Source of the DNA: a virus
Taxonomy: Duplodnaviria; Heunggongvirae; Uroviricota; Caudoviricetes
Virus record (IMG/VR): IMGVR_UViG_2706794673_000014
DNA length: 39,783 nucleotides
Reading direction: 5' to 3' (one strand)
Part shown: in pieces, positions 1-39,032 of the stretch
Layout: each line of letters begins with the position of its first letter
How positions within the stretch are numbered: position 1 is the stretch's first letter
The notes under the pieces: model-generated
The model's input: the letters and a program-made list of their open reading frames with translations, nothing else
What the model was told of the DNA's origin: nothing
The model's database searches: none
Program-made: the position numbers and the translations under genes

Positions 1-459
1 TTATTCAGTCGGCAGTGCTACGCGCCAGGGGAGCAGTTCGCCGACCCGGTTTATCGGCCAGTCGGCTATGACGTCAAGGACATAGCGGAGGTAGCTTTCT
101 GGCTCCACTCCGTTCAGTTTGCACGTCCCGATCAGGCTGTACAGCAGCGCTCCCCGCTCTCCTCCATGATCCGAACCGAAGAACAGGTAGTTTTTGCGGC
201 CCAGACTGACCATCCGCAACGCATTTTCAGCGATGTTATTGTCCGCCTCAGCCCAGCCATCATCTGCATAGTACGTCAGCGCCGGCCACTGGTTCAGGGC
301 ATATGCGAACGCTTTCGCCAGTTCTGAGTGTCGCGACAGGGTTTTCATCTTTTCACGCAGCCAGCTTTCCAGGGATTTCAGCAGCGGTTTCGTTTTCAAC
401 TGACGTTCGGCAAGGCGCTGTTTCAGCAGGAAGATGTCGTCAGAAGAGATGTCGTTCAT
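1..459 (-). pseudogene. tnpC: IS66-family transposase (TnpC/Orf3) C-terminal fragment, roughly the last 150 aa; 5' two-thirds absent
   Basis: Translation ends ...NIAENALR...GRKNYLFFGSDHGGERGALLYSLIGTCKLNGVEPESYLRYVLDVIADWP, as recalled for IS66 TnpC C-termini; stop at 1-3; in-frame stop upstream at 520-522. Confidence 0.8.
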
Positions 460-1415: not shown

Positions 1416-1569
1416 GACAGGATTTCCTTGTGTATGTGGGGTGCTCTGTGGCGCTCTGAGATGTGATTTGATTGAGGGTTTTACAGCGCGGACATTTAAC
1501 TTCCAGATAACTGAAGCTGGCTCGTGCCAGTAGCTTGTTACAATGTCGGCACCGTATGTTTCGATACAT
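1369..1569 (-). CDS. com: Com zinc-finger translational activator of mom
   Basis: [14 protein letters not shown]...EVKCPRCK...EHPT matches recalled Mu Com (IRCKNCNKLL...EIRCPRCK...EHPT); ATG at 1567-1569 preceded by AGGAGG; stop overlaps proposed mom start region. Confidence 0.8.
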
Positions 1570-1616
1570 GGCCGCATAACCTCCTGCTTTGTTGTTGATA
1601 TCTTTATCACTCAATC

Positions 1617-4958: not shown

Positions 4959-5030
4959 CGTCTTTTCTGCCTGTTTCTGAATTAAACAGAGTCAGAATAG
5001 CGACCGCTGAAAAATATGTGTTTTGCGGAA

Positions 5031-5063
5031 ATTCAAAAAAGCGTCACGGTACTTTTGGTGACG
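5031..5063 (-). terminator. Putative intrinsic terminator just after gin (6-bp GC-rich stem, then TTTTTT on the minus strand)
   Basis: Stem CGTCAC/GTGACG at 5042-5047 and 5058-5063 overlapping gin stop; plus-strand A-run 5035-5040. Confidence 0.45.
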
Positions 5064-5616
5064 GAGCTGGTGAGGCAGGAAAATAACGATAAAGGGTGGA
5101 AAGGCCAATATCAAATATCAGTGCGATTTGTTTACGGGACTCGCCATTAGCCAGCAAACGGGCGATTTGCTCCCGCTCTTTCTCTGTCAGTTTCTGAGGT
5201 CTGCCGCCATGACGCCCCTGAGCACGGGCAGCAGCAAGACCCGCGCGTGTACGTTCAATAATGAGTTCCCGCTCCATTTCCGCCAGCGCGCCCATTATAT
5301 GGAAAAAGAAACGTCCCATGGGAGTGGATGTATCAATATTGTCCGTAATGCTGCGGAAGTTAACGCCGCGTTGCCGGAGTTCTTCTGTTAAAAGGACAAG
5401 GTGCTGCATACTGCGTCCAAGGCGATCCAGTTTCCAGACCAGCAGGGTATCCCCTGGCCGGAGTCGCTTTAATGCGCGTTTAAGTCCGGGACGCTCCCTT
5501 GTCTTACCGCTTATTCTGTCTTCGAAAAACAGCTCACATCCTGCACATTCCAGCGCATTTCTTTGTAGCGCCGTATTCTGGTCATTTGTTGACACCCTGA
5601 TATACCCAATCAGCAT
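5044..5616 (-). CDS. gin: Gin/Hin/Pin-family serine DNA invertase
   Basis: MLIGYIRVSTNDQ...LLVWKLDRLGRSMQHL...GRFFFHIMGALAEMERELIIERT closely matches recalled Mu Gin; sits beside the invertible segment. Confidence 0.93.
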   Translation of the reverse strand: MLIGYIRVSTNDQNTALQRNALECAGCELFFEDRISGKTRERPGLKRALKRLRPGDTLLVWKLDRLGRSMQHLVLLTEELRQRGVNFRSITDNIDTSTPMGRFFFHIMGALAEMERELIIERTRAGLAAARAQGRHGGRPQKLTEKEREQIARLLANGESRKQIALIFDIGLSTLYRYFPASPAPSPKVP

Positions 5617-5681
5617 ACGATTTCCTTATTATAAAAAGCCGGAATTGTCGCATGAGGAATAAAACAGAGTTAATCCTGGCT

Positions 5682-5707
5682 TTCCTGAAAACCTCGGTTT
5701 ACGGGAA
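5682..5707. repeat. gix-like recombination site 1 (TTCCTGAAAACC-TC-GGTTTACGGGAA), core 5694-5695
   Basis: 26-bp imperfect palindrome with 12-bp half-sites and 2-bp core; resembles recalled Mu gix/hix sites. Confidence 0.75.
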
Positions 5708-6055
5708 ACGGTAAACAGGGCGGCGAATGCTCTGCCATCGGACGGCACCGCCGTTGCCGCGAATAGACTCGCCACCCCAAGAAATATTAATGGGGTTCCC
5801 TTTGACGGGACGCAGGACATAAACATCACTTCTGGTATAACACAGCAGGATGCGGATTCCCGATATATCCAGGATATCAGGCTGGGAGCAGAGAACAGGC
5901 AGGTAATGTACGGTGGGGCATATTACTCTGCGTACGGTAATGTTATGGCAGGCCTGCAGATTGACAGTAAAGTTGATGCTTCAAACGATTTTATAGCATT
6001 CAGACCCCTGCAAAAATTAGTCGGAGGTACATGGATTACGGTATCTCAGTTATAA
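5696..6055 (+). CDS. Alternative tail-fibre C-terminal cassette (Sv'-like), start-less; would fuse in frame to the constant part of S after inversion
   Basis: Open frame from crossover to stop 6053-6055 encoding [25 protein letters not shown]...FRPLQKLVGGTWITVSQL; first 23 aa identical to the corresponding part of S; no start codon. Confidence 0.65.
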   Translation, partial: GLRETVNRAANALPSDGTAVAANRLATPRNINGVPFDGTQDINITSGITQQDADSRYIQDIRLGAENRQVMYGGAYYSAYGNVMAGLQIDSKVDASNDFIAFRPLQKLVGGTWITVSQL

Positions 6056-6106
6056 ATAGTCAGTAAATAATATATTTTAAAACAGATTTATTTCCAGGAG
6101 GATTTT

Positions 6107-6628
6107 ATGGAACTAAAAAATATAACCCGTTATTATCCTGAAAATATGCCATATGGTAATAATGTTCAGTATTTCCAGAGTGAAGATGGTAAGGATTTCT
6201 ACGAATCCCTGCCATTATTCACCAAAAAATATAAACTTTGCATAACACCTGACAGCGGCGTTATCTGCTCAATATCACAGGACGCCTCGGCGCTGTATCC
6301 TGCGGGGTTTTCTGTGGTTGAGGTCGATGAACTCCCTGAAGGCACGGATATTTCAGGAAACTGGAAGTTTGATAATGGCATAATCTCCCGTATTCCGGTT
6401 AACTACGCAAGAAAACTGGAAGCAATGCGCCAGTCATATCTTAATCAGGCATATGAAAAAATTAATGACTGGAGAACGGAGCTACAACTGGGCACCATCA
6501 GCGATGAAGACAGAGCAGCACTTACCCAATGGATGGCATACATCAGTCAGGTGAAGAAAATGGAACTACCCGCCATTAAAACAGAAGCTGAATTTAACGC
6601 CATTAAATGGCCTGAGCAGCCACAGTAA
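6107..6628 (+). CDS. Tail fibre assembly protein (Tfa/U-like), 173 aa
   Basis: ATG with AGGAGG 6 nt upstream; Tfa-like C-terminus ...NAIKWPEQPQ; follows the Sv' cassette; AT-rich. Confidence 0.8.
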   Translation: MELKNITRYYPENMPYGNNVQYFQSEDGKDFYESLPLFTKKYKLCITPDSGVICSISQDASALYPAGFSVVEVDELPEGTDISGNWKFDNGIISRIPVNYARKLEAMRQSYLNQAYEKINDWRTELQLGTISDEDRAALTQWMAYISQVKKMELPAIKTEAEFNAIKWPEQPQ

Positions 6629-6659
6629 TAAAGAAGGCCGGAAGGCCTTCTGAATATCA

Positions 6660-7541
6660 TTATATACTTGCAGCCGTCACCCATGCTCCATTTAACAGAT
6701 ACTGCAACGGCCGGTAATACACGCCGCCGACGTTATCTGCCGTATTCTTACCGACATCCTGTACTTTAATTCCGGTAAGAACATTGCCGCCCCCCAGATT
6801 CAGATCCCAGCTTTCCCATGTTCCGGGCATATGTGCGGTCACCGACCCCAGTCTTATGGCGGTTACTGTTCCTGATGAGATAGTGATATCCTGCGTCCCG
6901 TCAAAGGGAACACCATTAATTGTGTGGGCATTTGCCAGCCTGTTCGCGGCAACGGCGGTGCCGTCCGATGGCAGGGCATTCGCCGCCCTGTTTACCGTTT
7001 CCCGTAAACCGACGTTATCGATAAAAGCCCCTTTATCCGGAATGTCTGCGCCGTTCTGCTCCCTGCGCAGGTAACGGTTATCACCTTCGCTTTTGCTGTA
7101 AACATCCAGATTATTACGGGCGGTTCCCTTATTCTCCAGGTCGGCGAGATTCTGATCCTTCGCCAGGGCATTAACGTCAGCGGGACCAAGACTGTTTTTT
7201 GTGGCAAGCGTCCCCAGACCAAGATAACCACGGGCCAGACGCTGGGCCTCCGCACCGGCATCAGCAATTTCTTTCAGGTTATTTTTCCGGGAAAAGGCAT
7301 TCGCAGCGATAATGGCTTTAATGGACAGCGTAAGCTGGTTTAACTGCGCCTTATCCGGCTGAATACTGGCTTCAGCCAGAATATTCAGCAGTTCGGCCTG
7401 GAGAATATTCAGCCAGTCCTGACCAATCCAGCTGATACCTTTTTGTCCGTCACCTTCGGTAAACCAGGTGGTGGTATTACTCTGCGCCGGTGCCAGCGCA
7501 GGCATATTCGCCACGCCGGAATTATTATCAACATGAAACAT
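6660..7541 (-). CDS. Tail fibre protein (Mu S-like); C-terminal ~75 aa encoded inside the invertible segment
   Basis: N-terminus [30 protein letters not shown] matches recalled Mu S; reading frame passes through gix site 2. Confidence 0.85.
6999..7024. repeat. gix-like recombination site 2 (TTCCCGTAAACC-GA-CGTTATCGATAA), core 7011-7012, inside the S gene
   Basis: Inverted relative to site 1; outer half-site TTATCGATAACG resembles recalled Mu gixL TTATCCAAAACC. Confidence 0.75.
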
Positions 7542-8101
7542 TAAATAGTCTCCTCTTCATGGCTGTTTGCATAAACGTAAATAAACGTCTGCCATGCAGG
7601 CTTATAACGGTTCAGAATACATTCCAGCGCACCGCCTTCATAAATACGCAGCGGCGTGAGAATATCATCCAGCACATTCATATTCCGGTAGCCGGTTTCA
7701 CTGTTAATCGTGACAATACTGACCCACTGCGAATCCGGTGAGGGCTGAATGTCAATCTGATAACCAAACTCCGCCGCAAACCGGATATAAAATTCACGGT
7801 TCAGCGAGGGCTTCATCCGGTATTTATTTCCGGCATAACGCTGTCGCTCCGTGAGGGTGGCTCCGGCCATATCACACTCGGGAAGCCCGAGATAACGCTC
7901 CCAGTCTTCCAGCAGCAGGCGCGACGTGTCAGGGAAACGCTCGGCAAGCAGCTGTTTACCCGTCCAGGATACACGCGCTGTCGAATGACTGAGGCCCAGA
8001 CATAATGATGCCAGTACGGATGACGGACGCTTGTCCCATGCCAGCCCGTCAGGCAGTAACTGCAACAGGGCGCGCTGATGCGGGGTCAGGGTTACAGCCA
8101 T
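7541..8101 (-). CDS. Tail/baseplate protein (Mu gp48-like)
   Basis: 186-aa ORF between baseplate J-like gene and tail fibre; gene order. Confidence 0.65.
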
Positions 8102-9192
8102 GTGATTTCTCCTACCGTCAGCAGCTCACTGTCTCCCGCCTGAACTGACGTCAGCGGACTGCGCACTTCAAAATCCTCCAGATTTTTCACCCCTGCCACC
8201 GCCCGCCAGAAAGACGACGGCAGAACCAGACCGCCGGGCCGGGATTCGTTATACAACAGGTCGGTCAGCGCCTGTTTTACGGCCGCCTGATTCTCCGGTG
8301 TTTTCGGGATGATCCTGATGCTGAAGGGCACCGGCTTATTGGTCAGTTTAAACACGGTCACCGTCGGCCCCAGAGGCTGTCCGACAGGCTGGCCGGTCGC
8401 CGGATCATCATGACTGCGGATATAATCCGCCACCCGCTGAACATCACCGTCACCGGGGAAAATATCCGGGTTATTATCCTGAACAAACGTTACCCCCACG
8501 CTGCCCGCCTGCGGCCATTCCGGGCGGCACCATGCCCGCGTCACGCCCGGCACTTCACGCGCCCAGCGTTCAAAATCATACTGCGTGCCGNNNNNNNNNN
8601 NNNNNNNNNNNNNNNNNNNNNNNNNNNNNNNNNNNNNNNNNNNNNNNNNNNNNNNNNNNNNNNNNNNNNNNNNNNNNNNNNNNNNNNNNNNNNNNNNNNN
8701 NNNNNNNNNNNNNNNNNNNNNNNNNNNNNNNNNNNNNNNNNNNNNNNNNNNNNNNNNNNNNNNNNNNNNNNNNNNNNNNNNNNNNNNNNNNNNNNNNNNN
8801 NNNNNNNNNNNNNNNNNNNNNNNNNNNNNNNNNNNNNNNNNNNNNNNNTAAACCACGCCATCACTTCGCTGGAGAAGCACACCTTCCTTGATCCCCGCAT
8901 CCGTGGTCAGCATCAGCTGAACCGGCCCGTCCCCCCGAGAGGCAGGCTTACGCATGACGCCCCAGAATGCACAGTGTTTCAGCAGTTCGGCTTCATCGGC
9001 TTCGGTCGGGATGATCTGACGCGCAATCCAGGCCAGATGCTCATGCTCCTGAGCAGATAACCCTGCCTGAGCGTAAGCAATGGCATTCAGGGTGGTTTCA
9101 TTCACACCCGGCTGCGAGCCGGGCAGGCGCTGGCTGATATCCTGCTGTGTCTGCGTGATTAACTGTGCCAGCGGTAAAGGCTGATAAGGCAT
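8092..9192 (-). CDS. Baseplate J-like protein (Mu gp47-like); interrupted by N-run 8591-8848
   Basis: Size and position in baseplate cluster; both flanks of the gap read as one frame. Confidence 0.7.
   Translation of the reverse strand: MPYQPLPLAQLITQTQQDISQRLPGSQPGVNETTLNAIAYAQAGLSAQEHEHLAWIARQIIPTEADEAELLKHCAFWGVMRKPASRGDGPVQLMLTTDAGIKEGVLLQRSDGVVXXXXXXXXXXXXXXXXXXXXXXXXXXXXXXXXXXXXXXXXXXXXXXXXXXXXXXXXXXXXXXXXXXXXXXXXXXXXXXXXXXXXXXXGTQYDFERWAREVPGVTRAWCRPEWPQAGSVGVTFVQDNNPDIFPGDGDVQRVADYIRSHDDPATGQPVGQPLGPTVTVFKLTNKPVPFSIRIIPKTPENQAAVKQALTDLLYNESRPGGLVLPSSFWRAVAGVKNLEDFEVRSPLTSVQAGDSELLTVGEITWL
8591..8848. other. Run of N (unsequenced or masked)
   Basis: Read directly. Confidence 1.
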
Positions 9193-9629
9193 TACTCCCC
9201 CTTAAGATCAGCATAAAAAATCATGGGCCTCACTGAACCATCAGGCAGGGTTATGCGCACCGAAAGCGCCAGCCGCGCGTGTCCCACACGTTCTGCATGA
9301 CAGACCACGGATGACGCCACGCCATCCTGACTGAGCCAGCCCAGCGCCTCATCCGCGTAAGCACGGGCACGGCTTATCACCGAGGCCAGCGTTTTTTCCC
9401 GGCTGAGAAGCCACAGACGGGAGCCAATGGGGCGCGGGCGAAAACTGTCTCCCCACCATCCCCGGCGGTCGCGCGTACCGTCAGGGATTTCATCCGATGC
9501 CAGCGCCCGGCGGTCAGTAAACAGCGAAATCAGAACGGCCGTCAGCAGACTGTCATCCGTCAGCAAGTCGGCACCGTTCAGTTGCAGCGAACCGCACCCC
9601 TGATCCCATACAATTGCAATATCAGCCAT
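9192..9629 (-). CDS. Baseplate protein (Mu gp46/W-like)
   Basis: ATG at 9627-9629 overlapping stop of upstream gene (ATGGCTGA); gene order. Confidence 0.65.
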   Translation of the reverse strand: MADIAIVWDQGCGSLQLNGADLLTDDSLLTAVLISLFTDRRALASDEIPDGTRDRRGWWGDSFRPRPIGSRLWLLSREKTLASVISRARAYADEALGWLSQDGVASSVVCHAERVGHARLALSVRITLPDGSVRPMIFYADLKGE

Positions 9630-10236
9630 TCTCCGGCGCTCCTGTCTTACTGCCTTTGCCGTTATCCTGATGCACATGGCCGGAATAGGTGATCCCGGCA
9701 ATAACGGCATCAGACATCGTGAACAGCCCGTCTGATTTACCTGTACCATCAAGCACGAAATTACCCTTAACATGCAGGTTTTTATCCACCGTCACATTGC
9801 CCGTAAAGGTGGCCTCCGGCGTATCCACCCGCATCCCCTCATCGGCGTAAATCTCCAGCATTTTGCATGTCACAATAATGCGACCATCCTTTGTTAACCG
9901 TATCCGGTGCCCCTCATGGTGATACACCCCCGTATCTCCGGCTGTGAGTCCGGTCGGGCGGCTGCGCCGGTCTTCCACCACAAGCACCACAGTCTGATCC
10001 CGCTGTCCGCCCAGACAGGCAAAAAAGGTTTCCGCACCCGGCAGGGGAACGCTGATCTGCCCGTACTGCTGGGGACGCTCCACATCATCAAAGGTTTCGC
10101 CGTCCATGCCGGTGAGCTGCACATTCTGCATTTTCAGTTCGTCATGTGTGCCGGTCAGAACGCCCCGGCCAAACAACAGGCGAATACCGCGCGTTACCGG
10201 GGCAATCAGGCGGCTGAACACTTCATCATTCATCAA
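9622..10236 (-). CDS. Baseplate assembly/spike protein V (Mu gp45-like)
   Basis: 204-aa ORF in baseplate cluster; gene order and size. Confidence 0.75.
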   Translation of the reverse strand: MMNDEVFSRLIAPVTRGIRLLFGRGVLTGTHDELKMQNVQLTGMDGETFDDVERPQQYGQISVPLPGAETFFACLGGQRDQTVVLVVEDRRSRPTGLTAGDTGVYHHEGHRIRLTKDGRIIVTCKMLEIYADEGMRVDTPEATFTGNVTVDKNLHVKGNFVLDGTGKSDGLFTMSDAVIAGITYSGHVHQDNGKGSKTGAPENG

Positions 10237-15354: not shown

Positions 15355-15765
15355 TTACTGGACACGGGTACTGGTGGCGCTGGCGAACTTCGCGGAGATA
15401 TCACCACCACCGTCAAGCGAGGCCGGTTCACTGCTCCAGGCCTTCGTCATCATGTGGACTTCACCGGTATCGGCCANNNNNNNNNNNNNNNNNNNNNNNN
15501 NNNNNNNNNNNNNNNNNNNNNNNNNNNNNNNNNNNNNNNNNNNNNNNNNNNNNNNNNNNNNNNNNNNNNNNNNNNNNNNNNNNNNNNNNNNNNNNNNNNN
15601 NNNNNNNNNNNNNNNNNNNNNNNNNNNNNNNNNNNNNNNNNNNNNNNNNNNNNNNNNNNNNNNNNNNNNNNNNNNNNNNNNNNNNNNNNNNNNNNNNNNN
15701 NNNNNNNNNNNNNNNNNNNNNNNNNNNNNNNNNNNNNNNNNNNNNNNNNNNNNNNNNNNNNNCTT
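15355..15765 (-). CDS. Tail tube protein (only C-terminal ~40 aa visible; remainder in N-run 15477-15762)
   Basis: Open frame ending ...GGGDISAKFASATSTRVQ with stop at 15355-15357; located between sheath and chaperone. Confidence 0.4.
   Translation of the reverse strand, partial: KXXXXXXXXXXXXXXXXXXXXXXXXXXXXXXXXXXXXXXXXXXXXXXXXXXXXXXXXXXXXXXXXXXXXXXXXXXXXXXXXXXXXXXXXXXXXXXXXADTGEVHMMTKAWSSEPASLDGGGDISAKFASATSTRVQ
15477..15762. other. Run of N (unsequenced or masked)
   Basis: Read directly. Confidence 1.
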
Positions 15766-15768
15766 ACC

Positions 15769-17280
15769 TCACAAAATGAAACGGATCTGCGCGGCCATGA
15801 AGCGGAACTGGTTAACCAGATCCGGTGTACACATCACATCCAGACGGTTACGNNNNNNNNNNNNNNNNNNNNNNNNNNNNNNNNNNNNNNNNNNNNNNNN
15901 NNNNNNNNNNNNNNNNNNNNNNNNNNNNNNNNNNNNNNNNNNNNNNNNNNNNNNNNNNNNNNNNNNNNNNNNNNNNNNNNNNNNNNNNNNNNNNNNNNNN
16001 NNNNNNNNNNNNNNNNNNNNNNNNNNNNNNNNNNNNNNNNNNNNNNNNNNNNNNNNNNNNNNNNNNNNNNNNNNNNNNNNNNNNNNNNNNNNNNNNNNNN
16101 NNATCCAGATAGCTGGGATCGATTTCGCCGTATGCATTCTGACGGTACATCGTCACCTGACGTTCAATCTGCACCACATCCGCGGCCGCGACGGTCACCG
16201 TGGACATGCCGGTATAAAGCAGGCTGTTTCGCTCTTCCCGCGTCAGACGATCCGGTGCTTCAGGTGCCATACGGGCAGGCAGCGCCAGTGTCTGTAATGG
16301 TCGGGCCGGATCCGTTGACAGGGAGGGCGCACAGACCGCACAAATGGAGGCAGCCCAGACATAATCCGGCTCTGGTGCTTTAGGAATAGAAGTGCAGGTA
16401 AACAGGAAGTCATTACGGGATTCACCAAAACTGGTTGCCGTACCGAAGGTGCCGGTATGCGCCATCCAGACCATACCGTCCGACATTTTTACCGGTCCCC
16501 AGCGTTTCAGCAGTTCATCCGCCAGAATTTTGAGATTTGCCGCATCCTTATAGGGCATGACGATGTAGTTGTACTGACGATTCCCCATCCCTGAGACGCT
16601 ACGGGTGATATCGGGGTTTGTTGCCTTCTGTGTTGGCGCGACGAGCTCCAGCGTAAGACCGGCCGGTGTAGTTTCACCGTCATAATAGTTCACCCGTAAA
16701 TCATGAGCTGAGCATTCACCGATAAAGCGGGCGTTAACCCCCATGCTGCCTTTAAGTCCTTCAGCATTATCACCACTGACTTCAGCTGCGATAGCAGTGA
16801 ATGGCGCATCAGTGTCAGCGTTAATGACCTTNNNNNNNNNNNNNNNNNNNNNNNNNNNNNNNNNNNNNNNNNNNNNNNNNNNNNNNNNNNNNNNNNNNNN
16901 NNNNNNNNNNNNNNNNNNNNNNNNNNNNNNNNNNNNNNNNNNNNNNNNNNNNNNNNNNNNNNNNNNNNNNNNNNNNNNNNNNNNNNNNNNNNNNNNNNNN
17001 NNNNNNNNNNNNNNNNNNNNNNNNNNNNNNNNNNNNNNNNNNNNNNNNNNNNNNNNNNNNNNNNNNNNNNNNNNNNNNNNNCTTGTGAAGCTCGGGTAAT
17101 ACGTACTGGTACATCAAGCTGACCGCGCCCCTGAATGGTAGTGTCTTTCATTGCAGCCTGACCAAACAACAGTACCGCCTGACGCTGTGGTGGAGTGCCG
17201 GTCACGGCCATTGAATTATTGATTTCAATCTGTACCAGCGGAATGCGATTGTTATCGCCGATATAATCAAAGTTAATCAT
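15769..17280 (-). CDS. Contractile tail sheath protein (Mu L-like); interrupted by two N-runs
   Basis: N-terminus MINFDYIGDNNRIPLVQIEINNSMAVTGTPPQRQAVLLFGQ is typical of sheath N-termini; C-terminal frame ends ...AAQIRFIL at 15769; frames differ across gaps. Confidence 0.75.
15853..16102. other. Run of N (unsequenced or masked)
   Basis: Read directly. Confidence 1.
16832..17081. other. Run of N (unsequenced or masked)
   Basis: Read directly. Confidence 1.
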
Positions 17281-29195: not shown

Positions 29196-29699
29196 TCATG
29201 GTGTTCTCTGAGTCAGCGTAACCGTGAGGAAAAGGGGGCAGGATTTGCGGAATATCANNNNNNNNNNNNNNNNNNNNNNNNNNNNNNNNNNNNNNNNNNN
29301 NNNNNNNNNNNNNNNNNNNNNNNNNNNNNNNNNNNNNNNNNNNNNNNNNNNNNNNNNNNNNNNNNNNNNNNNNNNNNNNNNNNNNNNNNNNNNNNNNNNN
29401 NNNNNNNNNNNNNNNNNNNNNNNNNNNNNNNNNNNNNNNNNNNNNNNNNNNNNNNNNNNNNNNNNNNNNNNNNNNNNNNNNNNNNNNNNNNNNNNNNNNN
29501 NNNNNNNNNNNNNNNNNNNNNCCGCCTGAGCAGGTTCAATCCCCTGACGGTGCAGTTCAGCACTGATCACATCAACCAGGTCCCGCAGCGTGCCGGGCCA
29601 GTTCTTTTTCAGCTCATCATCAGGAATATCATCCAGACGGTCAATCAGCGCGTGCAGCTGTTCGCTGTCACCAAACATGCTCATCTGTGTTTCAGCCAT
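29196..29699 (-). CDS. Mor/C-family transcription activator; only the N-terminal ~59 aa (29521-29699) are readable, the rest lies in N-run 29258-29520
   Basis: N-terminus MAETQMSMFGDSEQLHALIDRLDDIPDDELKKNWPGTLRDLVDVISAELHRQGIEPAQA resembles recalled Mu Mor; position between gemA and lys. Confidence 0.6.
   Translation of the reverse strand: MAETQMSMFGDSEQLHALIDRLDDIPDDELKKNWPGTLRDLVDVISAELHRQGIEPAQAXXXXXXXXXXXXXXXXXXXXXXXXXXXXXXXXXXXXXXXXXXXXXXXXXXXXXXXXXXXXXXXXXXXXXXXXXXXXXXXXXXXXXXXXXIFRKSCPLFLTVTLTQRTP
29258..29520. other. Run of N (unsequenced or masked)
   Basis: Read directly. Confidence 1.
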
Positions 29700-29769
29700 A
29701 CCCGCCTCCGGTCATCATTACACAGGGCAAGTTTAAAATAAAAATCCCGCGCTGTGGCGGGATTTGGGG

Positions 29770-30282
29770 TTAACGGGGGAATGATTTTTCATACAGCCTG
29801 CAAACACGCTCATAACTCATCACTGCACGTTCCGACATATCCAGGGCTGCCAGCATTTTGCGGCGGTGCCAGCGTTTGAGACGCTCCAGCACATCAGAGG
29901 CCAGCGCGGGTTGTTGCTCCAGCCACTGCCAGTTAGCCACACCTTCGCCGTCGTTCTGCGCGGCCGTCTGCGATTTCACCCAGCGGTTAAGGGCCGTTTC
30001 CCCGCCATCAGAGATAAATCCCTGCCGGTGCATCACTTTCCAGATGGCGCGAATTTTGGCGGTCACCGTACCCGGTTTTAAGGCCCGGTTAACCGGCTTC
30101 TGACGCACTTTAAAACCGCGTTTTTTGAAAACATCCAGCACGCGGGATAACTCACCGGGTGACATATCACGGCAACTGGATTTGCCGGTGGCTGCCAGCA
30201 GCGCGGATGTATAGGTATCATGGTCAAGCTGTAGATCGCGTTTTGCGACATGTATTAAGGTAATCAGGGAAGCGCGATTCAT
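29770..30282 (-). CDS. gemA: GemA-like regulatory protein (Mu gp16 family)
   Basis: N-terminal LITLIHVAKRDLQLDHDTYTSALL motif typical of gp16/GemA; position upstream of mor. Confidence 0.8.
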   Translation of the reverse strand: MNRASLITLIHVAKRDLQLDHDTYTSALLAATGKSSCRDMSPGELSRVLDVFKKRGFKVRQKPVNRALKPGTVTAKIRAIWKVMHRQGFISDGGETALNRWVKSQTAAQNDGEGVANWQWLEQQPALASDVLERLKRWHRRKMLAALDMSERAVMSYERVCRLYEKSFPR

Positions 30283-30294
30283 TATCGTGGCTCC

Positions 30295-30324
30295 ATAAAA
30301 AATGGGCGGTGTTACCGCACCGCC
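30295..30324 (-). terminator. Hairpin (GGCGGTG/CACCGCC) followed on the minus strand by a U-run, 18 nt upstream of gemA start
   Basis: 7-bp stem at 30305-30311 and 30318-30324, 6-nt loop; plus-strand A-run 30297-30302. Confidence 0.4.
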
Positions 30325-30352: not shown

Positions 30353-30592
30353 ATGTCAGATATAAAAAATGCACTTGATGTTGCCGCATTCACAATGGCT
30401 GGAAATCTTATGGTAACCCTGTTCGATAAGGGGCTGATTTCCCGTGAGGAGGCAATACATATTATCAATCTCGCTCAAAAAAACTCTACCCCGGAAAATG
30501 CAGAAGATATCCAGGATGGCTCATATATTAATACCGACTGGCATTTCGACAATCTCCGGGCCTGTATGGGGATTACCGCTGAAAAAGATTAA
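30353..30592 (+). CDS. Hypothetical protein, 79 aa, opposite strand to the surrounding early operon, AT-rich
   Basis: ATG at 30353 with AAGGA 8 nt upstream; GC visibly lower than flanking phage DNA. Confidence 0.6.
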   Translation: MSDIKNALDVAAFTMAGNLMVTLFDKGLISREEAIHIINLAQKNSTPENAEDIQDGSYINTDWHFDNLRACMGITAEKD

Positions 30593-30860
30593 AAATTTTT
30601 GCATAATGTTCAGATGTAAGAATTGCTGAACCATCAACACCGAGCCTACGGCGAACGTATTCCTCGCGGGCTATTTTATTATCCAGAGATACAGCATCCT
30701 TAATCAGGTTAATCTCCCGCTCCATTATCAAAAGGGCTTCTCTGGCTGCAAGATTTTCTTTTATCGCATATTCGATAATGTCCCGCATACGTTCAAGCAT
30801 GCCGATTTTAGCCAGTTCTTCGTCGATAGATTTAGGCGCAAATTTGATTTCTTTTTCCAT
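30573..30860 (-). CDS. Hypothetical protein, 95 aa, predicted helical; convergent with 30353-30592 and overlapping it by 20 nt
   Basis: ATG at 30858-30860 with GAGGA upstream; AT-rich. Confidence 0.5.
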   Translation of the reverse strand: MEKEIKFAPKSIDEELAKIGMLERMRDIIEYAIKENLAAREALLIMEREINLIKDAVSLDNKIAREEYVRRRLGVDGSAILTSEHYAKIFNLFQR

Positions 30861-30861
30861 A

Positions 30862-31005
30862 TTATTCATCCTCACAATTTATACATGCAGTGTCGTCGCC
30901 CATATCGCAGTGGTTACATTTTATCTCACCACAATGTGGGCACTCTTTCAGATACTCCGGGTCCTCATTTCCACAGGTGGGACATTCAACAATTTGCTCA
31001 TCCAT
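30862..31005 (-). CDS. Small zinc-ribbon protein, 47 aa, four CxxC pairs
   Basis: Translation MDEQIVECPTCGNEDPEYLKECPHCGEIKCNHCDMGDDTACINCEDE derived by hand; below the ORF-track size cut-off. Confidence 0.5.
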   Translation of the reverse strand: MDEQIVECPTCGNEDPEYLKECPHCGEIKCNHCDMGDDTACINCEDE

Positions 31006-31330
31006 TATGTATCCCCTGTAATTCCGGCAAGGCCGAAAGATGGCACCAGTGCGTCACCTGTCCGTCCTCATCTTCAAGGCAGGCTCCGGTTTCTTCATCA
31101 ATAAAAAAGCCTTCATACCCCATATGGCCGATGCGCAGTTCCTGTTGGTCACCATACTGAACAATCAGCACGACAGCCTCCATATCAGGCGGAAATGCGT
31201 CATCCAGTGAATGCCAGGGATAACCGCGCAAATCCCCGAAATAAACGCCGGTCAGCGTTCCGCCACAGAGCGGCATTCCGGCGGCACACACAAGAGGTTC
31301 ATCTGATTCAACAAATAAGGTCGTTATCAT
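30998..31330 (-). CDS. Hypothetical early protein, 110 aa
   Basis: ORF in early operon; no motif recognised. Confidence 0.5.
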   Translation of the reverse strand: MITTLFVESDEPLVCAAGMPLCGGTLTGVYFGDLRGYPWHSLDDAFPPDMEAVVLIVQYGDQQELRIGHMGYEGFFIDEETGACLEDEDGQVTHWCHLSALPELQGIHNG

Positions 31331-31878
31331 GGCGTTAACTCCCGTAATACAGCGTCCTCGGCAGTCCGGCGACGGTAATAAACTGCGTGAGCAGAATGTT
31401 CAGATATTCCAAACTTTTCGCCAATTTCCCGGAATGACAGACGGCGTGGGTAATCGGAATCACGCAGCTCACGTATAAGACGTACATCATCATCAGATAT
31501 GCGCGTGCCGGGGCGTAACTCTCCGCACTTTGTTAATCCAGCACCAATCATTCCTGCCCGACATCTGACAGAATCTTTATTACGTCCGAGATATTCTCCC
31601 ATTTGCTGGCAGGTCATTGTTCTGGCATTTTTTCGAATAAACTTATCTTCATCAGGTGTAAATCTTGGGTGTTTATATTTCAGTAACTCCGGGTATGAAC
31701 TGCGCAATACACCAGTCCGGTTATATACAGCCCAGACAGTTCTTTTTATTCTGGCAGCAATATCCTTAACCGGGGTGGATGAATAAAGCGCAATCAGCAG
31801 CGCATCTTCTTCAGGTGTCCACGGACGGACATGAGCGGGGGCGCGACCTTTTAGTCCCATGGGTTGTAATTTCATCAT
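31327..31878 (-). CDS. Hypothetical DNA-binding protein with three tandem helix-turn-helix-like repeats (GcrA/SANT-like)
   Basis: Repeats WTPEEDALLIALY..., FTPDEDKFIRKNA..., ISDDDVRLIRELR... each followed by a putative recognition helix. Confidence 0.55.
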   Translation of the reverse strand: MMKLQPMGLKGRAPAHVRPWTPEEDALLIALYSSTPVKDIAARIKRTVWAVYNRTGVLRSSYPELLKYKHPRFTPDEDKFIRKNARTMTCQQMGEYLGRNKDSVRCRAGMIGAGLTKCGELRPGTRISDDDVRLIRELRDSDYPRRLSFREIGEKFGISEHSAHAVYYRRRTAEDAVLRELTP

Positions 31879-31881: not shown

Positions 31882-32397
31882 TCACCCCCTGACTCGCTTT
31901 TCAGCAGCATAAAACTCATCAGACAGTATTTCGGTCATTTTCTGTTTTGCGGGTTTTACGCCGCACTGAAGGTAAATCACATCGTCAACGCAGAACCACT
32001 TCACAGGGCCAAACAGGATTGCCGAGAAATCAATACCCAACCAGAACAACAGCGCATCGGTTCTGGCATACGTGACGGGCGAATATTCACGCCACAGACT
32101 GTTCAGTTCATCAGAGGCAACACGCAGGGTTTTAGGGATACGTGATGTGCGCGGTGTGCAGCTCCAGCCATTCGACGCAGTCGGTTTTCGCCATAAGTCG
32201 CGATGAAAAGGATATTTGTCCTCCGTAAAACGCAGTCCCTTAAAGTAAAATCCACTGATACCGGATACAAATACCGACCGGCACGCAACATTCAGCACGG
32301 CCTCAAGGCGTTTTGCCTCATCCTTAACTTTCTGGCAGTCCTGCTGGTATTTTTGCCACGCAGCCAGCGCGGAAGGGTTTGATGTTTTAAAGAACAT
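31882..32397 (-). CDS. Hypothetical early protein, 171 aa
   Basis: ORF in early operon; no motif recognised. Confidence 0.5.
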   Translation of the reverse strand: MFFKTSNPSALAAWQKYQQDCQKVKDEAKRLEAVLNVACRSVFVSGISGFYFKGLRFTEDKYPFHRDLWRKPTASNGWSCTPRTSRIPKTLRVASDELNSLWREYSPVTYARTDALLFWLGIDFSAILFGPVKWFCVDDVIYLQCGVKPAKQKMTEILSDEFYAAEKRVRG

Positions 32398-33075: not shown

Positions 33076-33606
33076 TTATTTATTCAGTCCGGCGTCCTGT
33101 TCAAAAGGCTCGACATAAAAACTTTCAGCGCCTTTATTCACCTTGATACCGGCAATGCCTTTCACAGCATCCGGCTCCGCCAGGACGGCTTCCTTGTTCA
33201 CTTCCTCTTTCGTGCGGATGAAACGCTCAAGCCCCATACGGCGCAGCATTTCAATCACACCTTCCACATCACGGCTGACGCTGCATGATGGCGTTCCCAG
33301 CCGCCATGACACCGTTCCGGTGGTCAGATTGGCTGTTTTGGTTTTGCCGCCGTTCGTCAGCTCATCACGGTTGGTTTTGCACCAGTCCTGAATCCCTTTA
33401 AAAAGCACTTTGATTTGCTTTTTAAGATTTTCAATCTGCGGCGTATAACGGGCGGTGATTTCTGCCACTTCGTCATTCATCGCCGTTTCCAGGCGCAGCG
33501 CCTCTCGCTGAATATCTCCCAGGGTGCGGATATCACGGCTGACTTCTTCCCGGGTCTGCGGTGCCGCCTCGGCTGCGGCCTTTAATTTTGTAACGCGTTT
33601 AGCCAT
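33076..33606 (-). CDS. gam: Gam host-nuclease inhibitor (Ku-like DNA end-binding protein)
   Basis: MAKR...IRTLGDIQREALRLETAMNDEVAEIT...WCKTNRDELTNGGKTKTANLTTGTVSWR...FIRTKEEVNKEA closely matches recalled Mu Gam. Confidence 0.92.
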   Translation of the reverse strand: MAKRVTKLKAAAEAAPQTREEVSRDIRTLGDIQREALRLETAMNDEVAEITARYTPQIENLKKQIKVLFKGIQDWCKTNRDELTNGGKTKTANLTTGTVSWRLGTPSCSVSRDVEGVIEMLRRMGLERFIRTKEEVNKEAVLAEPDAVKGIAGIKVNKGAESFYVEPFEQDAGLNK

Positions 33607-33915: not shown

Positions 33916-34473
33916 TTACCCCTGTTGATTAAATTCATTACCGTTAATAACCCCGGAAGCCATGCCTCTGTCTTTCATGAATGCACTGGCTTNNNNNNNN
34001 NNNNNNNNNNNNNNNNNNNNNNNNNNNNNNNNNNNNNNNNNNNNNNNNNNNNNNNNNNNNNNNNNNNNNNNNNNNNNNNNNNNNNNNNNNNNNNNNNNNN
34101 NNNNNNNNNNNNNNNNNNNNNNNNNNNNNNNNNNNNNNNNNNNNNNNNNNNNNNNNNNNNNNNNNNNNNNNNNNNNNNNNNNNNNNNNNNNNNNNNNNNN
34201 NNNNNNNNNNNNNNNNNNNNNNNNNNNNNNNNNNNNNNNNNNNNNNNNNAACCGAATCATGGCATTAAAGGCTTCTTCCTCCGTCACCGCTTCCGGTATC
34301 CCCGGAACCAGTAACTGCTCCTGTTCATCACGTCCATGACGCGCCATAACCTCAATCACATGCCGTACCGTGGCAGGCTTTCCGGCAACTATCGGCAATG
34401 CACCTTCCGGCAGGACGTAACCAAACTCAATAAGACCACTCGACCACGCCCATGCAATGAGATTTTTTTTCAC
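33916..34473 (-). CDS. Hypothetical early protein, interrupted by N-run 33993-34249
   Basis: N-terminal 74 aa readable; remainder within gap. Confidence 0.45.
   Translation of the reverse strand: MKKNLIAWAWSSGLIEFGYVLPEGALPIVAGKPATVRHVIEVMARHGRDEQEQLLVPGIPEAVTEEEAFNAMIRXXXXXXXXXXXXXXXXXXXXXXXXXXXXXXXXXXXXXXXXXXXXXXXXXXXXXXXXXXXXXXXXXXXXXXXXXXXXXXXXXXXXXXXASAFMKDRGMASGVINGNEFNQQG
33993..34249. other. Run of N (unsequenced or masked)
   Basis: Read directly. Confidence 1.
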
Positions 34474-34741: not shown

Positions 34742-34969
34742 TTAGCTGACTTGTTTCGCACCAACAGAACGGCATATTCCGCTGTAAACTTCTGTCGCAC
34801 CTTCGCGATCAAGTCCGGCAGATATCACCATTCGTGTGCGGTCATTAAATTCAAAAAGTAAATCGCCACATTCTTTATTTTCGGCCAGTGAAATCACCTT
34901 CACGTTATCGAAATTAACCAGGTAAAAGCGTCCGTAAATATCAGGAATATTAAATACCGCCATAATCAC
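34742..34969 (-). CDS. Hypothetical protein, 75 aa, at the position and size of Mu kil
   Basis: First gene after B; size ~74 aa as in Mu kil; position only. Confidence 0.4.
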   Translation of the reverse strand: MIMAVFNIPDIYGRFYLVNFDNVKVISLAENKECGDLLFEFNDRTRMVISAGLDREGATEVYSGICRSVGAKQVS

Positions 34970-35907
34970 ACCTGTGAGAGTAATTCAGGGTTGGTATAAA
35001 CCTCTTTAAAGGCCGCATTAATATGTTTTTCTGTCAGCGCCGCGCCTTCACCGCTGGCGGTGAGCCACGCCTGGTTAAGCGTATGTGTCAGAACGCGTAA
35101 CGCTCCCGGCTTTTCAGCGATAGCCTGCATGACGGCCAGCTCGGCCTCACCACTGATCCCCCACGCCATGGCAATGGCCAGCACATCCGCCTTTTTGGCC
35201 TTGCGAAGTTGTTTTGTACGGGCAAGACGGCTGAACAGGCGCGATAAATCATCAAAGGCGCGGCGTCCACCTTTAAACAATCCGCGCGGGTTACCAATAA
35301 GCACCATCCCGATCCCCGTGGCGTCCTGAATTGCCCGGAGTTGCTCCAGACCGTCAATACCAAGATGATCCGCCTCATCCACAATCACCAGTCCACGCGT
35401 TCCCATCAGGCGACGGCGGATGGCGCGGGATAATGCCCCTTTGTTCGCGCGGGTGTAATCAATCCCCAGCGCATCGGCCAGCTCCAGCAGACACTCCGTG
35501 ACGCTGGAGTGCGCGGGTGACAGGGTGATCATCCAGGTGTTTGGTTGCTCCTGGCAGTAATTACGGGCAGTGGCCGTTTTACCCACACCCGGTACGCCCA
35601 CAATAACGTTAATACAGCCCATCAGGCGAACCGCCTGAAACAGTGCGCGCAGCTCCTGGACTGTCTGAGTTTCCACAAACTGCGGCGGTTCCGGCAGTGC
35701 GCTTTGTTTATTCCAGTTCTCATACCAGGAGCGCAGGGAAGCAGCCACAGCAGCGTTATCGCCTTTATATTTTCCCTTACGGAAAGCCGATAATGTGCCG
35801 TCGGAAATTCCCGCCTCTCTGGCGATGGCATACTGCGTCAGTACGCCGCCATCAATAAGTTCATCAATGGTCTTGATTACATCGTTAATATCGGTCATAT
35901 TATTCAC
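34966..35907 (-). CDS. B: MuB-like AAA+ transposition target-capture ATPase
   Basis: Walker A VGVPGVGKT, LVIVDEADHLG Walker B, ...KPGALRVL...; closely matches recalled Mu B. Confidence 0.92.
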   Translation of the reverse strand: MNNMTDINDVIKTIDELIDGGVLTQYAIAREAGISDGTLSAFRKGKYKGDNAAVAASLRSWYENWNKQSALPEPPQFVETQTVQELRALFQAVRLMGCINVIVGVPGVGKTATARNYCQEQPNTWMITLSPAHSSVTECLLELADALGIDYTRANKGALSRAIRRRLMGTRGLVIVDEADHLGIDGLEQLRAIQDATGIGMVLIGNPRGLFKGGRRAFDDLSRLFSRLARTKQLRKAKKADVLAIAMAWGISGEAELAVMQAIAEKPGALRVLTHTLNQAWLTASGEGAALTEKHINAAFKEVYTNPELLSQV

Positions 35908-35980: not shown

Positions 35981-38068
35981 TCAGGCCAGCGGATCACTTT
36001 CTTTTAATTTCGCTTCGAGCAGTTGCAATCCCCGCTGGAAATTACGCTCGTATTCTTCATCAGGTTCATCGTCAGCGACCGGTTGCTGAACGGTCACCGT
36101 ATTACCCACAGGGCGGTATATGTTTTCCAGCCAGGGCTCCTGCGGCTTGTGCTCCAGCACGTTGACAACCTCATCCTCGGCATCACGGATTTTTTCCTCT
36201 GCGCGTTTACGCATGCCTTTAAGGCGCTGCTGCTGTTTGTAGTATTCCGCGCTGACAGGGAAGGCTTCGCGTTTATTGCCGTCCCATACCGCCTCGCAAA
36301 TCACGCTGCCATCCGGGCGGCGCACGGTAATTCGTTCGGCATCATGAATGTCATAGCTGATAAGTACCTTACGGCCATGCTCGTCACGCAGCTCGGGCGC
36401 GTAGTAAATATTATTCAGCCAGCGTATTTCACAGCGTCTTACAGGGCGCTCCACCATCGGCCGGAACATATCCCGCAGTTCAACATCGGACAGCCATTCA
36501 ATTTCCGTGTCCTCTTCCGCCAGGCGTTTTTTTCTGAACTCCGCCGGGCTGTAATGTTTACCGTTCGGCTTCATGGGTAATTCATCGTGCGGCCGGTTGT
36601 TGTACCACTCAACACCGTCACGAATGGCATCAATCAGTTCAGACCAGGACGGTAAATCACGCATCGCTGACTGCTGCCGGGCGTTCAGCCGTTTGCCCTG
36701 TTGCAGGGCACTGAATGCCGAGCGTAAATCGCGGTTGGTTTTACGTAACGTCTCGCGATCTGCTCCTTTCCCGAAATAGGTGCGGTATTTACGGGCTATG
36801 CGCATCGGTAATGTGCGGTTAAGCCGTTCGATAATGCCCCGTCCCTGCGGATTACCGGCAATCCCTGTCGGGTGATTAATCCCCAGTCGTGGCAGTATCC
36901 CCACAATCTCCTTATCCAGGACGTCGGCGGTTTCCCCGGAGCCATTATCCGAGTAATACAGAAACGGTTTGCCATGATGGCGAATACCGTGCTGTATGGC
37001 ACCGGCTACGGCGAAAACATTTTCAGCCAGGTCAAGGCTCCAGCCCACCACAAAGCGCGTGCCACCGTCGATAACAAAGGTCACTTCCGGTGCGAATGGC
37101 CGCCCGTGAACCGGGTGCGCGCATTTCAGCTTCATGCCGTGACCGTCACCAATCCAGACATAATTCACCGGCATTCTGGACCAGTCGCGGCGCGTGAATC
37201 CCTCAAGCTGACGGTATTCACTGCCAGTTACCCGGCCTTTTTGTTTCACCACTTCCGGCAGTTTCTTCATTGCGCGGCGAATGGTGTCATAAGAGGGCAT
37301 GATATCGAGCATATAAGGCTCATCAGCGTGCCGGTGCTGCCATTCAGCAACAAAATCCTCGTAAGCCTCGGTCATTGGTCGGCCGTTTGACTGGCGATAC
37401 TGCGCCAGAAATTCGGGCAGCCAGTTAATATCTTCGGCTTTTATTTCCTGGCGTTTACCCGGTGCCAGTAAAAGCAGGCGTTCAGCGGCGTTCTGTGCCT
37501 TGTTAAAGGCCGCAATCCAGCGTTTCAGCGTGATTTCACTCAACGCGCGGCTGTTTCCCTTTTTGGCGTTCGCCGTCTCAACCATTGCCACAATGCGCTC
37601 GTCCAGTTGTGATCGTGCCAGGCTGTTAACGAGGAACCGGATAGCTTTAGCGCAGCTGAAACCGGGTTGTTGCGTGAATTTCAGCACCTCACTGACGATC
37701 GCAATGCGTGCGTCTGCCACCTGGCGCTGGTTTTCAGTCAGGGCATTGAGGCGTTCGACCATCAGTTGTGGTGATCCGCGATATGCCTCCACCGCATCAA
37801 CCACGGCAGACGAGCGTCTGGCCTTTGTCACCACCGGAGCCGGTGATTCATCGGCTTTTTGCGTCATCAGTTGCAGGGCATAACGTTCGCGTAATGCCTG
37901 CTGTGTCACTTCAGGTAAACAGTCAATGCTGTATTCAAAACCTTTAGCGCCTTTCTTGCGGCGTCTGCTGGTTTCGCTGGTTGCATACTTCCTGATTGAA
38001 TAGCGAACGCCTTGCTCCGTTCCCGGCATCCCCGGTAATCCAACCAGTTCTTTAACTGAAGCAAACAT
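35981..38068 (-). CDS. A: MuA-like DDE transposase
   Basis: 695-aa ORF between ner and B; N-terminal end-binding-like region; length and order as Mu A. Confidence 0.93.
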   Translation of the reverse strand: MFASVKELVGLPGMPGTEQGVRYSIRKYATSETSRRRKKGAKGFEYSIDCLPEVTQQALRERYALQLMTQKADESPAPVVTKARRSSAVVDAVEAYRGSPQLMVERLNALTENQRQVADARIAIVSEVLKFTQQPGFSCAKAIRFLVNSLARSQLDERIVAMVETANAKKGNSRALSEITLKRWIAAFNKAQNAAERLLLLAPGKRQEIKAEDINWLPEFLAQYRQSNGRPMTEAYEDFVAEWQHRHADEPYMLDIMPSYDTIRRAMKKLPEVVKQKGRVTGSEYRQLEGFTRRDWSRMPVNYVWIGDGHGMKLKCAHPVHGRPFAPEVTFVIDGGTRFVVGWSLDLAENVFAVAGAIQHGIRHHGKPFLYYSDNGSGETADVLDKEIVGILPRLGINHPTGIAGNPQGRGIIERLNRTLPMRIARKYRTYFGKGADRETLRKTNRDLRSAFSALQQGKRLNARQQSAMRDLPSWSELIDAIRDGVEWYNNRPHDELPMKPNGKHYSPAEFRKKRLAEEDTEIEWLSDVELRDMFRPMVERPVRRCEIRWLNNIYYAPELRDEHGRKVLISYDIHDAERITVRRPDGSVICEAVWDGNKREAFPVSAEYYKQQQRLKGMRKRAEEKIRDAEDEVVNVLEHKPQEPWLENIYRPVGNTVTVQQPVADDEPDEEYERNFQRGLQLLEAKLKESDPLA

Positions 38069-38486: not shown

Positions 38487-39032
38487 ATGAACAAGCAAAC
38501 AACAACATCTCTTTCTTTTCCTGGTGGTAGAAAAGAAAGCATTGCTGAGCGTCTGAAAAGGCTGATTGGCTCCCGCAGCGTCAGAGCTGCAGCAAGAGAT
38601 TGGGGGCTTTCATTTTCAACACTAAACAATTATCTGTCTCGTGGCACTGAGCCATCCTTAAGTGTCGCCCTTCAGATTGCGTCTATCGAAGGAGTAAGTG
38701 TTGAGTGGCTATGTGGATTCAGTGATGCATCACAAGTGAATCGGTGTGAGATCAAGGAAAATCAAGATGAAAGCAAGAAGATAATTATGACGATTATCAG
38801 CGCACTTGATGAAAAAGACTTAGAGCAGCTATCGAAAAATTTGGTTCTGAATGGAGCCAAGTACTTAGCTCGGTTGTTAGAGCCTGAAAATCAAGATCTA
38901 ATCCGCTTAGAAGGAAGGAAAAGAATAGCTGCATTACAGCTTGAAGGTATGTCTGACGAACGCGTCAGAGAGATTTTGGAAGAAACTGAGAGAAGTCGCA
39001 AATCTAACGCGGTAGAACCAAAAGCGGGTTAA
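38487..39032 (+). CDS. Prophage repressor (HTH DNA-binding protein, functional analogue of Mu c)
   Basis: Divergent from ner, reads toward the phage end as Mu c does; HTH-like AAARDWGLSFSTLNNYLSRGTEPSLSVALQIA; AT-rich. Confidence 0.75.
   Translation: MNKQTTTSLSFPGGRKESIAERLKRLIGSRSVRAAARDWGLSFSTLNNYLSRGTEPSLSVALQIASIEGVSVEWLCGFSDASQVNRCEIKENQDESKKIIMTIISALDEKDLEQLSKNLVLNGAKYLARLLEPENQDLIRLEGRKRIAALQLEGMSDERVREILEETERSRKSNAVEPKAG

Follow-up and report, generated by a model that had tools for sequence, protein, structure and literature searches.

The analysed stretch of 39,783 nucleotides (the window) was a complete Mu-like prophage of E. coli in reverse orientation (Table 1). The gene under study was a minus-strand open reading frame (ORF) covering exactly 31327..31878, which encoded 183 aa plus the stop codon, with an ATG start at 31878-31876 and a TGA stop at 31329-31327. 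Its product was identical (100%) to an annotated CDS of E. coli 600029 (WP_000977059.1), named 'SANT/Myb-like DNA-binding domain-containing protein' in RefSeq; an older name, 'AsnC family protein', persists on other copies. The protein was basic, with a pI of 9.9 and 35 K+R residues against 23 D+E residues. Homologous DNA was found in 200 of 5426 complete E. coli genomes, and the homologues in alignment A1 were full length in all cases (22/22), down to 43% identity. Comparison with a 73%-identical allele gave an overall dN/dS of 0.24. This is a real gene, and its homologues are under purifying selection. An antisense ORF of 95 aa on the plus strand (31499-31786) was discounted as a mere by-product of the conserved gene on the minus strand.

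A Shine-Dalgarno-like sequence preceded the start codon, and the gp12-like gene upstream ended with a stop codon (31882-31884) between this sequence and the ATG, which suggests that translation may be coupled to that of the gp12-like gene. The gap from the upstream stop codon was 3 nt and the gene's own stop codon overlapped the next start codon, so the gene is embedded in a tightly packed operon.

Table 1. Features of the prophage and of the gene encoding the 183-aa protein (positions in the window)
Feature	Position	Strand	Basis or remark
Repressor	38487-39032	plus	
Transposase A	35981-38068	minus	
B	34966-35907	minus	
gam	33076-33606	minus	
Mu gp11 homologue, 68% identity	32397-32930	minus	blastp/tblastn against Mu, Pfam Gp11_C
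Mu gp12 homologue, 55% identity	31882-32397	minus	blastp/tblastn against Mu
Shine-Dalgarno-like GGGGG	31885..31889	minus	6 nt upstream of the ATG of the gene; read from the sequence
Gene of the 183-aa protein	31327..31878	minus	ORF list
N-terminal segment, aa 1-17 (MMKLQPMGLKGRAPAHV)	31828..31878	minus	conserved in A1, predicted disordered
Repeat 1 (R1), aa 18-60, Myb/SANT/GcrA-like, WTPEED	31699..31827	minus	AlphaFold2, hhalign, c-Myb R2 aligned
Repeat 2 (R2), aa 71-113, Myb/GcrA-like, FTPDED	31540..31668	minus	AlphaFold2, hhalign, c-Myb R3 aligned
Repeat 3 (R3), aa 124-172, divergent HTH, ISDDD	31363..31509	minus	AlphaFold2, sub-threshold Pfam matches
C-terminal helix, aa 173-183 (AEDAVLRELTP)	31330..31362	minus	AlphaFold2 helix 173-181, conserved in A1
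Three 15-nt direct repeats (span 31486..31818)	31486-31500, 31645-31659, 31804-31818		spacing exactly 159 nt; repeat search of the DNA
Divergent block over R2, R3 and the end of R1	31333..31732	minus	69-81% nucleotide identity to LC727895 (sliding identity)
110-aa acidic ORF, PHROG 6925	30998..31330	minus	start overlaps the stop of the gene (ATGA)
GemA-like gene	29770-30282	minus	
Mor	29196-29699	minus	

The genes on this strand were found in the order gam–gp11–gp12–(gene of the 183-aa protein and 110-aa ORF)–gp13–gp14–gemA–mor. Past mor, lysis and morphogenesis genes were located, followed by a Gin-type invertase, a Mom homologue and an IS66 fragment at the far end. The gp11 and gp12 homologues upstream fix the position of the gene in the Mu early region, and this gene order supports its assignment to a putative early transcription unit between gam and gemA/mor, all on one strand, in agreement with the early operon proposed in the initial annotation. 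Mu contains no gene between gp12 and gp13. In the window, this slot is filled by the gene of the 183-aa protein and the 110-aa ORF, the latter of which was found in most, not all, Mu-like loci. Since Mu itself propagates with this slot empty and its semi-essential region can be dispensed with under laboratory conditions, any role of the protein is probably accessory.

A scan of genome contigs, with one genome per species, revealed no confirmed relative; relatives were sought in IMG/VR because the family resides in accessory prophages. Among 51 IMG/VR loci, 42 contained the gene in a Mu-like early region with the gene order given above, always directly after a gp12 homologue, and six contained a homologue between a Dam-type methylase gene and a P2-type replication gene A. 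The P2-like homologues, from these six loci and from Salmonella prophages, showed 38-47% identity, and the Salmonella copies overlapped the start of A. A homologue was also located in the early operon of a Citrobacter P2-like phage.

Three acidic motifs were found in the protein, WTPEED (aa 20-25), FTPDED (aa 73-78) and ISDDD (aa 126-130), with a period of exactly 53 aa. Each unit of this length is composed of a three-helix core of about 40 aa and a basic linker of about 13 aa. The 15-nt direct repeats in the DNA encode the acidic (T/S)P(E/D)ED motif that opens helix 1 of each repeat. An AlphaFold2 run on A1 gave an all-helical model with a mean pLDDT of 84.6, comprising three three-helix bundles (helices 22-32/37-43/48-59, 75-84/90-97/101-110 and 129-140/149-156/160-169), an extra C-terminal helix (173-181) and disordered residues 1-13 (pLDDT <50). 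The three motifs and three tandem helix-turn-helix (HTH) modules described in the initial annotation were thus recovered in the ORF and in the predicted structure, and the structure prediction that it had named as a check did yield HTH folds. Its three repeats of about 40 aa hold as three units, but they recur every 53 aa, and the third is no clear repeat by sequence but a divergent HTH.

At the level of the single sequence, similarity between the repeats was weak and hardly above that of shuffled sequences. In Smith-Waterman comparisons, the observed score was reached by 28 of 2000 shuffles for R1-R2, by 51 of 2000 for R2-R3 and by 495 of 2000 for R1-R3. Profiles of the repeats were taken from the 22 homologues of A1. 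By these profiles R1 and R2 are clearly homologous (hhalign probability 98%, E 2e-13, 40 columns), and R3, which matched the other repeats at E 1e-3 to 4e-3 (probability 8-19%), is a divergent HTH in register, related to R1 and R2 by sequence only weakly. The sub-threshold Pfam matches of R3 were HTH_AsnC-type, HTH_10, HTH_38 and Sigma70_r4. In Mu gp9, the second repeat aligned to R3 and the first to R2; in T5 D5, the sigma70_r4_2-like repeat aligned to R3.

In the N-terminal segment, G11 and H16 were invariant in A1, and P6 and P14 were nearly so; this segment may serve as a basic arm contacting DNA or a partner. Through the entropy of the 22 homologues, helix 3 was found to be the most variable helix of each repeat (1.5-1.9 bits). 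Helices 1 and 2 of R3 and the N-terminal peptide were nearly invariant, and helix 3 of R3 was the most variable segment of the protein. Invariant Arg residues were located at the start of and within helix 3, R46/R54 in R1 and R99/R107 in R2. The variable putative recognition helices fit either diverging sequence specificity or little specificity, and they point to no particular target.

The family profile matched c-Myb R2R3 with an E value of 1.2e-6, spanning R1 and R2 with the same spacing. The predicted structure also has the features of the Myb/SANT fold, namely three-helix bundles in which helices 2 and 3 form the HTH, repeated in tandem with a unit length of about 52 aa. The regular triad of tryptophans or other aromatic residues that forms the core of each Myb repeat was not found. 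Only the first position is kept (W20 in R1, F73 in R2, I126 in R3), and the second and third Myb tryptophan positions are aliphatic in A1 and in the c-Myb alignment. Unlike Myb R2R3/SANT proteins (PF00249, PF13921), the protein has a third repeat, which is not Myb-like by sequence. The Pfam Myb models remained below the gathering cut-off (PF00249 on R1, 19.7 against 24.4 bits; PF13921, 16.5 against 22.9), and some homologues passed (P0044 at 32.4 bits, and P0017-P0024 by precomputed PF00249 matches). Searches of the protein in Pfam and NCBIfam gave sub-threshold HTH and Myb matches only and no curated family membership, and the single sequence had no significant match among PDB sequences.

GcrA of Caulobacter (PDB 5yiu; PF07750) has one such module, whereas the 183-aa protein has three. 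The Pfam GcrA model (PF07750), its C-terminal part included, did not match. A GcrA-type C-terminal sigma-70-interacting domain is absent, and the three HTH modules and the short helix account for all 183 aa. The likeness to GcrA/SANT-type modules noted earlier therefore appears sound at the level of the fold, where the c-Myb R2R3 profile match bears it out, but does not extend to formal membership, with the Pfam Myb models below threshold and the second GcrA domain absent.

Cbp1 (PDB 2lvs) was matched by the family profile with an E value of 5e-4 and was also the best Foldseek match in the PDB (E 0.059, probability 0.96). Cbp1 of Sulfolobus is a small CRISPR-repeat-binding protein with tandem imperfect HTH repeats on linkers that binds extended DNA; it is, however, archaeal and chromosomal, from an unrelated context, and the similarity is weak. 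The name 'AsnC family protein' was considered a misnomer. The HTH_AsnC-type match, at residues 130-164, reached 18.8 bits against a cut-off of 27, and the protein contains no RAM/AsnC_trans_reg domain and no beta-rich C-terminal domain.

SANT-type domains can bind proteins instead of DNA. By analogy with SANT and GcrA, the protein might act mainly through protein contacts, binding RNA polymerase/sigma-70 or a nucleoid or replication protein via its invariant surfaces, with DNA contact being secondary. Such a role is quite improbable for a protein that is strongly basic, carries conserved Arg residues in helix 3, matches no Pfam GcrA model and has no GcrA C-terminal sigma-interaction domain, and whose relative T5 D5 is annotated as DNA-binding. 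A link to DNA methylation, considered for the GcrA-like fold, for the Dam neighbour in P2-like prophages and for mycobacteriophage 'methylase' matches, was not supported: no methylase adjoins the Mu-like gene, and in the methylase/HNH-endonuclease genes that contain the mycobacteriophage matches, the module probably serves just to bind DNA.

The protein was assigned to PHROG 323, 'transcriptional regulator, D5-like', with E 5.3e-53 and 181.6 bits (residues 2-182 on columns 80-256). T5 D5 (T5.118, YP_006946.1), from which this PHROG takes its name, scored E 1.2e-71, and Mu gp9 scored E 5.2e-29. Comparison of A1 with T5 D5 in hhalign gave a probability of 96.4% and E 1.1e-9 over 147 columns (residues 18-171 against D5 71-232), with all three HTH repeats aligned in the same order; in tblastn, identity was 24.6% over 171 aa, with E 1e-4 in a small database. 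The repeats of D5 also open with a W/F-TP-(E/D) motif. T5 D5 is an early gene among replication genes, between the ligase gene and the helicase/primase/polymerase genes. It differs in its length of 255 aa, which includes an N-terminal extension of about 70 residues and a C-terminal tail rich in Ala and Lys, and its identity to the 183-aa protein is about 25%. Considering this remote similarity and the extra regions, the function of D5 need not transfer. T5 is a virulent phage, whereas the gene studied here comes from temperate Mu-like and P2-like prophages.

The NC_005859 record describes T5 D5 as a DNA-binding protein that takes part in shut-off and is needed for both DNA replication and late transcription, an annotation that goes back to McCorquodale et al. 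1979, as cited in PMC12630848. D5 was also predicted by AlphaFold3 to bind DNA via HTH (2026 preprint 10.64898/2026.07.11.737809).

Mu gp9/E8 (99 aa) corresponds to R2 and R3, with 27% identity over 103 aa in blastp and a probability of 97.4% with E 1e-11 in hhalign. It has two repeats, lacking the N-terminal arm and R1. Its gene is located before gam, whereas that of the 183-aa protein is located after gp12, both in the Mu-type early region. The Mu-like prophages containing the latter show no gp9-type gene and Mu contains gp9 only, a pattern seen in few genomes and with 33993-34249 of the window, between B and gam, masked; this complementary distribution hints at equivalent roles of the two genes. 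The comparison with Mu early genes, proposed in the initial annotation as a further check, thus brought out a homologue; as gp9 is a protein of no assigned function, this refutes nothing in the initial annotation.

Through an exhaustive HMM search, 12,863 proteins were revealed at E <=1e-3. Many of these relatives carry 3 to 9+ tandem units of the R1-R2 type, and some are fused to helicases. Among the BFVD fold matches, uncharacterised phage proteins, Myb-like proteins and endonucleases made up the majority. From the number of relatives, their multi-copy and fused architectures and these fold matches, we conclude that the R1-R2-type module is a widespread phage DNA-binding building block.

Some of these matches might also mean that the protein is an independent DNA-binding module for which homing endonucleases were the source or the exchange partners. 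The gene would then be a cassette that is selfish or in decay and contributes nothing to the phage cycle. R1 and R3 weakly match the HNH-endonuclease PHROGs 1891 and 6156, the mycobacteriophage matches are inside methylase/HNH-endonuclease genes, phage endonucleases are among the BFVD fold matches, and, compared with Mu, the gene plus the 110-aa ORF forms an insertion. A cassette of this kind is nevertheless very improbable, considering the dN/dS of 0.24 and the full length of the 22 aligned homologues, the position fixed in two phage lineages together with the translational coupling, and the lack of a nuclease domain in the protein or its neighbours.

Taken together, the protein is a small, basic, D5-like protein with three tandem HTH modules from an early Mu-like operon, which we infer to bind DNA; on balance, we favour the view that it modulates early phage development and has no dedicated host function. 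The homology to T5 D5 and the constant placement in early or replication modules of three phage types argue for a role on DNA in early development, and any effect on transcription or replication would be by analogy with D5. The protein would be made from the early operon of the Mu-like prophage. Two of its tri-helical modules are of the Myb/SANT/GcrA type and the third is more like sigma region 4 or a homeodomain, and short basic linkers string them together. The third helix of each module would probably lie in the DNA major groove, and the basic arms and linkers may touch the backbone or the minor groove, so that one monomer could cover an extended stretch of duplex DNA. On phage DNA, it may act as an accessory factor in transcription switching or timing, in replication or in transposition.

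The initial annotation had instead suggested a host transcription modulator, which is possible but gained no specific support from the analysis, T5 D5 being annotated for phage replication and late/early phage gene expression. In its explicit form, the protein would be a sequence-specific transcription factor that reprograms host promoters, with the three modules jointly recognising one long, composite operator on the chromosome of E. coli. Myb R2R3 and GcrA, which gave the best fold and profile matches, do regulate in a sequence- or methylation-specific manner, and near-identical architecture is kept in unrelated Mu-like and P2-like phages, which have common hosts and little DNA in common, as a host target would explain; the differences in helix 3 between alleles could also mean altered specificity. 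However, a conserved host site predicts conserved recognition helices, and it is these helices that are the most variable. No result indicates a host target, operator or regulated gene, the protein has no effector or oligomerisation domain, and the sole characterised relative, T5 D5, is annotated for phage replication and phage gene classes. We regard action on host promoters as unlikely.

The result provides a lead for a part of the Mu early region made up of genes of no assigned function, as both gp9/E8 and the three-repeat protein are homologues of T5 D5, a classical DNA-binding replication and late-transcription factor. Should the prophage versions act as D5 does, they would become candidate regulators of the early-to-middle switch, in transposable as well as P2-like phages, and candidates for sensing by host defences. 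Public annotation already gives both the fold and the family label (SANT/Myb-like in RefSeq and D5-like in PHROGs), and the practical gain is therefore modest. In the literature on Myb-like/SANT phage proteins, Mu gp9 and the Mu semi-essential region, we found nothing on this protein. Newly added here are the explicit three-way link between T5 D5, Mu gp9 and the 183-aa protein, the placement complementary to gp9, the presence in both Mu-like and P2-like early operons, and an intragenic mosaic structure.

This structure was revealed by comparison with the Mu-like insert of LC727895, to which nucleotide identity was 78% in the gene and 92-95% in the flanking genes. Divergence extends from the 3′ end of the gene to near the end of R1. 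By the Nei-Gojobori method, dS was 0.94-1.22 in R2 and R3 and 0.21 in R1, and dN/dS within the gene was 0.14-0.58. This looks like an old allele that was recombined in, with a putative breakpoint inside the gene between R1 and R2, and that is under purifying selection. The divergence, old and synonymous-rich, does not look like rapid positive selection.

The gene is thus a local hot spot of divergence with two old allele classes, a pattern that might also come from a selected role in phage-host conflict, in which the protein interferes with or is sensed by a defence system, or excludes other phages. By experiment in E. coli, T5 D5 was mildly toxic on its own and triggered a type IX retron (2026 preprint 10.64898/2026.07.11.737809). 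Against such a role, the substitution pattern just described is not that of positive selection, PADLOC gave no match for the gene and three neighbours, and for a phage, detection by a defence system is a drawback rather than a function. We consider a conflict role highly unlikely as the reason for the gene's presence.

The N-terminal segment and R1 matched a separate PHROG of 61 columns (PHROG 38779, E 1e-12). The coverage of the arm and R1 only by this PHROG, the two repeats of Mu gp9 and the breakpoint together suggest that the protein may consist of two exchangeable units, one composed of the arm and R1 and the other of R2 and R3. Considering these units, we might speculate, with considerable doubt, that the D5/gp9 family is a modular early DNA-organising factor. 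Temperate phages with different replication modes, namely Mu-like transposition and P2-like rolling circle, would swap the two units by intragenic recombination, and the variable third helices would set either the phage-specific DNA targets or which host defences, such as the D5-sensing retron, recognise the phage.

The gene for the triple-HTH protein and the 110-aa acidic ORF next to it together formed an insertion relative to Mu. The ORF showed translational coupling with the triple-HTH gene; it was assigned to PHROG 6925, a Pfam search of it gave no match, and it was found in most, though not all, of the Mu-like loci carrying the triple-HTH gene.

Homologues of Mu gp13 and gp14 were identified in the early region (table below). 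The gp13 homologue carried a zinc-ribbon-like CxxC...CxxC pattern, and its N-terminus was shorter than that of Mu gp13 (60 aa). The 79-aa ORF on the opposite strand occupied the position of Mu's oppositely oriented gp15, and no similarity to Mu gp15 was detectable. Two strong terminator-like hairpins were predicted on the gene strand, which may divide the early transcript in the manner of Mu's internal terminators. At the late end, the genes corresponded to the mom and G-segment inversion system of Mu.

Features of the late end and the early region of the prophage
Feature	Position in window	Strand	Remarks
IS66-family transposase fragment	1-459	-	at window edge
Mom-family DNA-modification protein	678-1610	-	310 aa; Pfam Mom, E 1.6e-77
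Gin/resolvase-type invertase	5044-5616	-	
Terminator-like hairpin	29742-29765	-	between GemA-like and Mor genes
Terminator-like hairpin	30305-30324	-	just upstream of GemA-like gene
79-aa ORF	30353-30592	+	PHROG 32893
Mu gp14 homologue	30573-30875	-	49% identical
Mu gp13 homologue	30862-31005	-	47 aa; 88% identical
110-aa acidic ORF	30998-31330	-	PHROG 6925

The window contained six N runs of 250-286 nt each (8591-8848, 15477-15762, 15853-16102, 16832-17081, 29258-29521 and 33993-34249), within which ORF calls and homology searches were blind. One of them fell in the Mor-like gene and another among the small genes that separate B from gam.

In P2-like prophages, the homologue of the triple-HTH gene was always flanked by a Dam-type methyltransferase gene and the replication gene A (L003-L005 and L054-L059, at about 4400-9650 in each locus), and in L003-L005 it overlapped the start of gene A. 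A link of the family to adenine methylation is conceivable because of the GcrA-like fold, but the Mu-like context gives no support to it.

The repeat unit itself was also found in other proteins. Four metagenomic proteins (P0029, P0030, P0039 and P0081) carried the WT(P/Q)EED...LGR(S/T)...RA..LG(L/I) unit repeated 4 to 12 times in tandem, and in P0030 the repeats were fused to a ResIII/Helicase_C helicase. For T5.108 (L011, 9546-12332), the "replication origin binding" helicase of T5, the T5 record lists SANT/Myb and helicase InterPro domains, while our Pfam search found Herpes_ori_bp alone. A tandem Myb module similar to the first two repeats was present in gp109 of Mycobacterium phage Bombitas (L063, 2004-3431), with 35% identity to residues 12-118 of the triple-HTH protein, and likewise inside such genes of related cluster J phages. 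The annotation of these genes varies between DNA methyltransferase and HNH endonuclease; the presence of the module inside them suggests that a homing endonuclease bearing this DNA-binding module was inserted into a methylase gene or fused with one.
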